DNA of 64,000 nt from IMG/VR virus record IMGVR_UViG_2541047802_000007, one strand, 5' to 3'. This stretch comes from a virus (taxonomy: Duplodnaviria; Heunggongvirae; Uroviricota; Caudoviricetes). Shown here one piece after another: positions 28,093 through 30,529 of this stretch. Position numbers and translations under genes: made by a program. A model generated the notes under the pieces. It saw nothing but the letters and a program-made list of their open reading frames with translations. It ran no database searches and was not told the origin of the DNA. The first letter of the stretch is position 1; the number at the start of each line of letters is the position of its first letter.

Positions 28093-30176
28093 GTCATGCC
28101 GATATGAACAACTGCTGCGGCTTTAACGAGGCTGCCGCAGCGTTCTCATGGAACAGCCCGAAAAAGGCCATTAACCCTTATCTGGACCCGGCGGAAGTCG
28201 CGCCGGTTTCTGCGCTTTCAAACCTGATCACTCTGTACGCTGCCGATAACGAGCAGGAACAGCTGCGCCGCGAGGCACTGAGTGATCAGGCCTGGGAGCG
28301 TTATTTCTTTAATGAATCCCGTGATCCTGTCCAACGCGAAATGGAGCAGGATAAGCTCATTAGCCGGGCAAAGCTGGCGCATGAGCAGCAGCGTTTTAAT
28401 CCAGACATGGTCATTCTGGCGGACGTTAACGCCCAGCCTTCCCATATCAGCAAGCCGCTGATGCAACGTATTGAATACTTCAGCAGCCTGGGCAGGCCAA
28501 AGGCTTATTCCCGCTATTTGCGTGAGACGATTAAGCCATGTCTGGAACGACTGGAGCATGTACGCGACTGTCAGCTATCCACTTCTTTTCGCTTTATGGC
28601 AAGCCATGAAGGGCTGGACGGCCTGCTGATCCTGCCTGAAATGAGTCAGGATCAGGTGAAGCGCCTGTCTACCCTTGTCGCCGCGCATATGAGCATGTGC
28701 CTTGATGCAGCTTGTGGTGATTTGTATGCCACCGATGACATTAAGCCAGAAGAAATCCGCAAAACATGGGAAAAGGTGGCAGCGGAAACCCTGCGTCTGG
28801 ATGTTATCCCGCCTGCGTTTGAGCAACTCCGTCGGAAAAGAAACCGCCGTAAACCCGTGCCTTATGAACTCATTCCGGGTTCGCTGGCGCGTATGTTATG
28901 CGCCGACTGGTGGTATCGGAAATTATGGAAGATGCGTTGCGAATGGCGGGAAGAGCAGTTGCGTGCTGTTTGCCTGGTCAGCAAAAAAGCATCTCCCTAT
29001 GTCAGCTATGAAGCCGTGATGCATAAACGTGAGCAGCGCCGTAAGTCGCTGGAGTTTTTCCGTTCTCATGAACTGGTGAACGAAGACGGCGACACGCTGG
29101 ATATGGAAGACGTGGTAAACGCCAGCAGCAGCAACCCTGCGCATCGCCGCAATGAGATGATGGCCTGTGTTAAAGGTCTGGAGCTTATCGCGGAAATGCG
29201 CGGTGACTGCGCCGTTTTCTACACCATCACCTGTCCGTCACGTTTCCATTCCACGCTAAATAACGGCAGGCCCAACCCGACCTGGACAAATGCGACGGTA
29301 AGACAAAGCAGTGATTATCTGGTCGGTATGTTTGCTGCATTTCGTAAGGCGATGCACAAAGCCGGATTACGCTGGTATGGCGTGCGGGTGGCTGAGCCGC
29401 ATCATGACGGTACAGTTCACTGGCACCTGTTGTGTTTTATGCGCAAAAAAGATCGCCGCGCCATTACTGCTTTGTTGCGTAAGTTTGCCATTCGTGAAGA
29501 CCGCGAGGAGCTGGGTAATAACACGGAACCACGCTTTAAGTCTGAGCTGATAAACCCGCGCAAAGGTACGCCAACAAGCTACATCGCGAAATACATCAGT
29601 AAGAACATTGACGGGCGTGGTCTGGCTGGCGAGATCAGCAAGGAAACGGGTAAATCCCTGCGTGATAACGCTGAATACGTTAATGCCTGGGCGTCTCTGC
29701 ATCGTGTTCAGCAATTCCGCTTCTTTGGCATTCCGGGGCGTCAGGCTTACCGTGAACTGCGATTGCTGGCTGGTCAGGCGGCAAGGCAACAGGGGGACAA
29801 AAAAGCAGGTGCGCCGGTACTGGATAACCCGCGCCTTGATGCCATCCTAGCCGCTGCTGATGCTGGTTGTTTTGCCACCTACATCATGAAGCAGGGCGGC
29901 GTACTGGTTCCCCGCAAATATCACCTCATCAGAACCGCTTATGAAATCAACGAAGAGCCGACCGCCTATGGCGATCACGGTATTCGTATTTATGGCATCT
30001 GGTCACCCATTGCAGAGGGCAAGATCTGCACTCATGCGGTGAAGTGGAAAATGGTTCGTAAGGCCGTTGACATTCAGGAGGCGGCAGCCGACCAGGGCGC
30101 TTGCGCCCCTTGGACTCGTGGCAATAACTGTCCCCTTGGACTCGTGGCAATAACTGTCCCCTTGCTGAAAATTTGA
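28089..30176 (+). CDS. A: Replication initiation protein gpA-like; C-terminus altered by 26-bp tandem duplication
   Basis: 695 aa ORF; frame ends shortly after duplication at 30106..30157. Confidence 0.75.
30106..30157. repeat. Perfect 26-bp tandem duplication (2 copies plus 7-nt partial third)
   Basis: ccccttggactcgtggcaataactgt repeated head-to-tail inside gene A. Confidence 0.85.
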
Positions 30177-30529
30177 ACCAACAGGAGAAAGATAAATCAG
30201 CTGATGGGGACCCCAGAACGGACATTACCAGCATGGATGACAAGGAGTTGCACGATTACCTGCACAGTATGAGCAAAAAAGAGCGCCGGGAACTGGCAGC
30301 AAGGTTACGCCTGGTGAAACCGAAACGGCGTAAAGACTACAAACAGCGAATTACAGACCATCAGCGACTGCAGCTCGTGTATGAGCTGAAGTCCAGAGGA
30401 TTTGATGGCAGCGAGAAAGAGGTCGATTTACTCCTTCGCGGAGGCAGTATTCCGTCAGGAGCAGGCCTGCGTATCTTCTATCGGAACCAGCGTTTGCAGG
30501 AAGATGATCAGTGGCGGAACCTGTATTAA
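30173..30529 (+). pseudogene. Probable displaced C-terminal coding segment of gene A (out of frame through the duplication)
   Basis: TTG-start ORF in frame +2 relative to A; removing one 26-bp copy fuses it in frame with A with no stop. Confidence 0.45.

Follow-up and report, generated by a model that had tools for sequence, protein, structure and literature searches.

The 64,000-nucleotide stretch of DNA analysed here (Caudoviricetes virus record IMGVR_UViG_2541047802_000007; hereafter the window) contains a P2/186-like prophage whose gene A, predicted to encode a rolling-circle replication initiator, is interrupted by a perfect 26-bp tandem duplication. By homology with the annotated origins of phages P2 and 186, this repeat is a tandem duplication of the rolling-circle origin core within gene A. 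The same duplication was found in several lineages of Escherichia coli prophages, and further rearrangements in related A genes have one end at the same predicted nick site. With moderate confidence the duplication is attributed to the A endonuclease itself, which probably makes it by an error at the nick, joining the 5′ end that it holds to an over-extended 3′ end.

Tandem Repeats Finder reported an array with a period of 26, 2.3 copies, 100 % matches and no indels (30106..30164). The unit, CCCCTTGGACTCGTGGCAATAACTGT, is present in two identical copies and is followed by its first 7 nt (CCCCTTG) once more. Such an exact head-to-tail repeat of 33 nt in 64 kb is not expected by chance. An earlier sequence-only reading of the window had claimed that a perfect 26-bp duplication frameshifts A, and both the repeat analysis and translation bear this out. 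The frame of A is shifted at codon 684 by the additional 26 bp, with loss of the C-terminal ~121 native residues, close to the 120 or so that had been supposed. Deletion of one copy in silico restored a single A open reading frame (ORF) of 804 codons without an internal stop, in agreement with the fusion protein of about 800 aa that had been foreseen. The truncated protein retains the HUH and tyrosine motifs, while the conserved C-terminal region is lost.

The repaired A protein matched the Phage_GPA family (PF05840) with an E value of 4.3e-128 over residues 188-510, covering the whole profile. Its identity to A of P2 is 31 % and to A of 186 is 35 %, and its HUH and YxxxY motifs align with both proteins. 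The tyrosine pair aligns with Y450 and Y454 of P2 A, which we take to be the catalytic tyrosines of that enzyme, a role that has reportedly been described for them. Judged by domain, motifs and internal origin, the gene belongs to the P2/186 A family, and nicking activity is predicted for its product. The segment cut off by the frameshift (30173..30529) showed no match to any Pfam family, and it holds a motif that is also found in 186 A (S-K/R-K/R-ERREL..RLR..KP..RRK). Indeed, 186 A has its origin ~84 codons before the stop, and its tail aligns with the post-origin segment of the window (LSRRERRELTNRLRKKKP), so that the homology continues into the orphaned segment. The similar length of 186 A (694 aa) made 695 aa a candidate for the natural full length of the protein in the window; this was rejected as a coincidence of length, since 186 A runs 84 codons past its origin. 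Annotated A proteins in the relatives inspected are ~800 aa long, and the related phages Klebsiella 4LV2017 and vB_EcoM-813R9 carry a single copy of the unit and an A of ~804 aa, as do ~1,200 E. coli prophages; no relative was found among those inspected whose A ends at the present stop. The region of the window is 100 % identical to that of E. coli S88, MS7163 and N53. In S88 the prophage is 186-like and integrated at ssrA, and A is its only pseudogene, labelled in RefSeq as 'replication endonuclease, frameshifted'. A frameshifted prophage replication gene in itself is already annotated and ordinary. The features of the locus are collected in Table 1.

Table 1 Features of gene A and its predicted origin in the window (a slash in a nucleotide sequence marks the predicted nick or, in the third CCCCTTG, the position that mimics it)
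Feature	Position	Strand	Basis
Gene A, P2/186-type rolling-circle replication initiator, pseudogene through the +26 frameshift	28089..30529	+	Pfam Phage_GPA; homology to P2/186 A; RefSeq S88
Shortened A ORF of 695 aa; residues 1-683 native, followed by 12 residues out of frame and a TGA stop	28089..30176	+	ORF list, translation
HUH motif H444-W-H446, kept in the truncated protein	29418..29426	+	Alignment to P2/186 A, 'EPHHDGTxHWH'
Tyrosine pair Y498/Y502 (YIAKY), kept in the truncated protein	29580..29594	+	Aligns with P2 A Y450/Y454
G+C-rich hairpin GGGCGC-TT-GCGCCC, directly 5′ of the first predicted nick site	30095..30108	+	Fold
Repeat copy 1, predicted A nick between 30112 and 30113 (CCCCTTG/GACTCG)	30106..30131	+	Tandem Repeats Finder; P2/186 rep_origin homology
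Repeat copy 2, second predicted nick site between 30138 and 30139	30132..30157	+	Tandem Repeats Finder; homology
Third CCCCTTG (CCCCTTG/CTGAAA): mimics the 5′ half of the nick site, usable as microhomology, ends the duplicated segment	30158..30164	+	
Orphaned 3′ segment of A, 118 codons, residues ~688-804 of the intact protein	30173..30529	+	Different frame from the 695-aa ORF

The position of the origin follows from the records of the two model phages. In the P2 record a 'nick site at ori' is annotated at 29892, inside gene A, and the 186 record has a rep_origin at 28576, annotated by similarity. On the sequences they correspond to the first and second G of TCG/GAG, one on each side of a single phosphodiester bond. 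Codon-level alignment, with a codon-for-codon match of the origin between APRSPVNNC in P2 and APWTRGNNC in the window, places the homologous bond at CCCCTTG/GACTCGTGGCAATAACTGT, and this bond occurs once in each repeat copy. The conserved CAATAACTGT core sits, according to the alignment with the annotated P2 and 186 origins, inside the A coding sequence, and the duplication is thus predicted to make a second nick-site core. The duplicated unit can be written as nick+1 to nick+26 and then ends in CCCCTTG, a repetition of the 7 nt before the nick; single-copy alleles likewise have CCCCTTG at +20 to +26. A nick-spanning oligonucleotide for A of this lineage would have the sequence GGGCGCTTGCGCCCCTTGGACTCGTGGCAATAACTGTCCCCTTGCTG. 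A short G+C hairpin was found just 5′ of the nick in the window, in P2 (GCGGC-ATC-GCCGC; L009:2874..2886) and in 186 (GGGCGC-TTCT-GCGCCC; L312:6557..6572), the stem of the window and of 186 (GGGCGC/GCGCCC) differing in sequence from that of P2, and the second repeat copy has no such hairpin at its 5′ side. This hairpin may be a recognition element for initiation. The fold z-scores are weak on single sequences, and the hairpin is taken as supporting context.

In the proposed mechanism, A would nick at CCCCTTG/GACTCG and remain covalently bound to the 5′ end, while polymerase would extend the 3′-OH, during initiation or once a replication round has overrun the regenerated origin. Now and then A would join the 5′ end that it holds to the extended 3′ end instead of the original one. 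Such joining would duplicate the N nucleotides just made and would yield a tandem duplication starting at nick+1. In rolling-circle plasmids synthesis normally proceeds ~10 nt past the nick at termination, before joining takes place (Khan 2005, in the part quoted in PMC5037232). A value of N = 26 would be favoured in the lineage of the window, and the 26-nt product would predominate there, since extension by 26 nt once more yields a 3′ end of CCCCTTG, identical to the 7 nt preceding the true nick. The A proteins of P2 and 186 are cis-acting, and late transcription of the P2 type depends on replication. For these reasons a duplicated genome could still be packaged and lysogenise, but would afterwards be unable to replicate or to kill its host on induction. 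The carrier of the lesion would persist as an otherwise intact prophage, which fits the status of A as the sole lesion of the S88 prophage.

The duplication is not confined to the S88 haplotype. A junction-specific query found it in 8 of 5,426 complete E. coli genomes, belonging to 5 lineages that differ in neighbouring genes and cargo, while the single-copy form was present in ~1,120-1,296 of these genomes; the frequency amounts to ~0.6 % of the E. coli genomes with this A type. Pattern scans revealed further carriers among IMG/VR contigs (L014, L022, L047 and L052) and metagenome contigs (L307 to L309), as well as a duplication with one single-nucleotide polymorphism (L310) and, in the IMG/VR and metagenome scans, a triplication (L018). 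Considered as a candidate phase-variable contingency repeat, the unit has one, two or three copies across lineages. Sequences of the S88 haplotype, counted as five (the window, S88, two other complete genomes, L022 and L309), all have two copies. Among 90 single-copy A genes of another IMG/VR sample, 4 (~4 %) were disrupted elsewhere, each at a site of its own, and the origin duplication is a visible share of the defective A alleles. The matches listed in a scan of genome contigs for CAATAACTGT-N{3,33}-CAATAACTGT were chance ones in unrelated, AT-rich genomes. Limited literature searches found no earlier reports of this duplication or of a recurrent nick-anchored hotspot.

Recurrence of one and the same product is also what ordinary replication slippage could give, and this is the main rival, held to be possible but less likely than an error of A. 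The nascent strand would mispair between the 7-bp CCCCTTG repeats 26 bp apart, and the origin would matter only through stalling of the fork at the nick or at the bound protein. The presence of CCCCTTG at both ends of the unit in the single-copy allele would lead to a product of exactly 26 bp, repeated identical events are typical of microhomology hotspots, and the triplication of L018 is easily made from an existing tandem repeat. A comparison with other repeats of the same prophage speaks against it. Direct repeats of 7 bp or more with periods of 10-45 form 110 pairs in the prophage, 34 of which are longer than the origin pair, and the hypothetical duplication junctions of all 110 were searched against the 5,426 E. 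coli genomes. Full-length matches were obtained for the origin pair only (1 of 110 pairs, 8 genomes); none of the 109 control pairs, comparable or longer, was duplicated in these genomes, the other matches being partial alignments to native sequence. Deletion junctions, on the other hand, were matched at 3 control pairs, while the reciprocal 26-bp deletion at the origin, a product that in slippage is usually at least as frequent, was found in none of the 5,426 genomes. In IMG/VR, where any base other than the native one following the left half-site was scanned for, none was found either, and hence no origin deletion. This asymmetry, with duplication only and at the origin only, is not what generic slippage predicts. 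Furthermore, duplications of 21 and 51 bp that start at the nick lack microhomology altogether (see below). The sequence-only reading had regarded the repeat as the result of a recent slippage event; the duplication has stood, but its location at the nick site and the recurrent hotspot mean that slippage is no longer the best-supported mechanism.

Several other rearrangements are anchored at the predicted nick. E. coli RM10809-3 (L008) carries an in-frame 21-bp tandem duplication (GACTCGTGGCAATAACTGTCC twice), without microhomology, which begins exactly at nick+1 (GACTCG). In scans of window-type A genes that allowed any insertion of 1-30 nt around the nick, 11 contigs had a 6-nt duplication, GACTCG GACTCG, with a placement ambiguity of 1 nt, and no insertions of this size were found anchored elsewhere. 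Three copies of GACTCG are present at the nick in L329. At the nick of a divergent A allele, L313 (2760..2815), the 6-nt duplication is imperfect (GACTCA GACTCG); 7 codons upstream of its origin this allele also has a stop, CAG having changed to TAG. The corresponding scan of 186-type genes, again for any 1-30-nt insertion, found GAGTTC GAGTTC (6 nt) in L321, unambiguously at the nick. A scan targeted at the nick in genuine A genes of other lineages added duplications of 6 nt (L324), 7 nt (L325) and 51 nt (L317, without microhomology), as well as a 4.1-kb deletion in L315, L316 and L319 that removes A and has its right end exactly at nick+1. At the junction of this deletion, in these isolate-derived sequences compared with L325, ~11 nt were observed without an evident source. 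The 26-nt class itself has a placement ambiguity of 8 positions, among which is the nick. Candidates without an A gene upstream were set aside; these were L327, whose TCTGTC duplication lies 4 nt away from a nick-like motif, and the half-site matches L314, L318, L320, L322, L323 and L326.

A second alternative, that a single ancient duplication was passed among prophages through homologous recombination or gene conversion, is very improbable on the carrier haplotypes, on which a single origin spread by recombination was rejected. P2-like prophages are mosaic, the nearest neighbours of a carrier often differ between its left and right flanks, and L004 to L007 are nearly identical across 500 bp upstream, all of which would agree with transfer. 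However, when the carriers, with 12 distinct haplotypes, were compared with 106-112 single-copy alleles, the sequence nearest to each of them was, with one exception, a single-copy allele and not another carrier. Over 500 bp no difference separates L006 from the single-copy allele L187; it has 0-1 mismatches to single-copy alleles, and at least 8 to every other carrier; the window allele has 7-8 mismatches to single-copy alleles and at least 10-19 to the other carrier lineages. At the polymorphic sites nearest to the repeat, -35/-34 and +20/+22, all combinations are present among the carriers. Conversion tracts shorter than ~80 bp would be required each time. The other duplications at the same site (6 and 21 nt) argue against one ancient event as well. 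Independent recurrence explains these haplotypes much more parsimoniously than the spread of a single event by recombination would.

Least of all can the repeat be explained as an error of sequencing or assembly, or as a programmed recoding site by which full-length A is regained, a combined possibility with next to no probability: short tandem repeats can be mis-assembled, though nothing specific points to this here, and an artefact was ruled out because three complete assemblies made independently (S88, MS7163 and N53) and unrelated metagenome and IMG/VR contigs (L022 and L309) all contain the identical sequence, while recoding would need a +1 or -2 shift, for which no obvious slippery motif was seen in the repeat by eye, without a scan, and a lesion absent from ~99 % of the alleles is not a conserved signal.

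Returning to an error of the A endonuclease as the cause, several points weigh against it. The 26-bp product, taken alone, is equally predicted by slippage between the two CCCCTTG repeats, and a triplication is hard to make with a defective A. The nick position in this lineage was placed by homology with the P2 and 186 annotations only. Spread of an old allele by recombination could account for the in-frame 6-nt duplication. The control repeats may lie in less conserved regions than the origin, which would lower their rate of detection. In the targeted scan, which gave the duplications of 7 and 51 nt and the deletion, a base other than the native one had to stand immediately 5′ of the nick, so that nick-anchored events alone could be returned. 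Unbiased classes are restricted to the 26-nt duplication, the 21-nt duplication (L008, a chance find) and the 6-nt duplications (window-type, and L321). By our own estimate the chance that all of these unbiased classes fit the nick is (2/7)(1/22)(8/27)(1/7), or ~ 5e-4.

Comparison with known systems shows what is shared and what is particular to the window. Like the window, P2 and 186 have the Phage_GPA domain, the HUH motif and the YxxxY tyrosines, an origin inside A ~120 codons before the stop, a conserved core (xTxG/GAxTCxTGxCAATAACTGT) with a hairpin 5′ of the nick, and a genomic context of cI, apl/cII/fil, dam, A and a DinI/tum-like gene. Beyond the modest protein identity (31-35 %), the 5′ half-site differs, being CCTCG or TCTCG in these phages and CCCCTTG in the window, and the second CCCCTTG 26 nt downstream is present in the window lineage but absent from P2 and 186. 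In contrast to these phages, the window has a duplicated origin core and a truncated A. Nick-site-anchored illegitimate recombination has reportedly been described in rolling-circle replicons. In M13/f1, in two-origin constructs of phiX174 and in pC194, pUB110 and pT181, as here, an endpoint of the rearrangement lies exactly at the nick of the initiator; termination in these replicons needs less sequence than initiation, and synthesis passes the nick by a few nucleotides before joining. Those cases are mostly deletions and hybrid plasmids in laboratory constructs, whereas here short tandem duplications are found repeatedly in natural prophages of a dsDNA tailed phage. Unlike in those replicons, moreover, the initiator's own gene is destroyed, because the origin lies inside gene A. 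Slipped-strand duplications share with the present case a product flanked by a direct repeat, here 26 bp and 7 bp, respectively, but the strong site specificity, the lack of a reciprocal deletion and the sister events without microhomology set the present case apart. Defective or domesticated P2-like prophages similarly have an inactivated replication gene and keep immunity, integrase and cargo; their disruptions are scattered, whereas here one specific lesion recurs.

The surroundings of the prophage bear on the age of the lesion. The window is identical to S88 up to 55331, a position within ogr from which a Mu-like prophage takes over with its right end (TGAAGCGGCGCACGAAAA) and with mom, com and gin genes. 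The sequence-only reading had proposed that ogr and B are both disrupted. For ogr this proved correct, the end of the Mu-like prophage lying in the gene at ~55330; the gene at the position of B (26369..26710, DUF5347), on the contrary, is intact. The junction of ogr and Mu-like DNA was found in no complete E. coli genome of the collection, and ogr of S88 is intact. Since S88 has the duplication together with an intact ogr, the lesion in A is older than the Mu insertion, and the supposition that the duplication is recent does not agree with its occurrence in S88, MS7163 and N53, all without that insertion. The Mu-like insert was observed at 55330..64000, running off the end of the window; its right end (TGAAGCGGCGCACGAAAAGCGCG), followed by mom, com and gin-type recombinase genes of this transposable prophage, interrupts the ogr/Delta-like late activator gene at ~codon 30. 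In S88 a gene for a BRCT-domain protein is located between ssrA and the ogr end of the prophage (L311:4409..4891), where the window has Mu-like DNA (55488..55970). Because this DNA occupies that place in the window, S88 coordinates are not transferable beyond 55331.

Two further loci of the prophage may be mentioned. A hypothetical protein of 469 aa without a Pfam match is encoded at 31437..32846, in a variable cargo site between a DinI-like gene and the portal gene. In other carriers of the A lesion the same site harbours genes for an LA2681 HEPN protein, DUF4062, a TIR protein, a STAS-like protein or DarT/macro, and it looks like a defence-gene hotspot. An AIPR-family (abortive-infection-like) gene is located at 41712..43412 in the late region, on the strand opposite to its neighbours, between the baseplate V and virion morphogenesis genes (RefSeq annotation of the identical S88 sequence).

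A wider generalisation can be offered as speculation, and is in our judgement rather improbable in its full form. P2-family HUH initiators would write nick-anchored duplications into their own origins, and the out-of-frame products would act as a reversible, self-inflicted off-switch with 1, 2 or 3 copies. In this way every burst would give rise to prophages that are dead in replication, competent in lysogeny and unable to kill, while they carry immunity and defence cargo. If this is true, nick-anchored footprints could serve for the computational mapping of nick sites in rolling-circle replicons that are as yet uncharacterised. For prophage annotation it is of importance that prophages of this kind look complete while they should be incapable of replication. 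If A indeed causes the lesion, this would explain the visible share of one lesion among defective A alleles and would provide natural in vivo evidence on the sequence needs of the joining step of HUH initiators. It would also reveal a route from the phage's own replication chemistry to locked-in, otherwise intact P2-like prophages.

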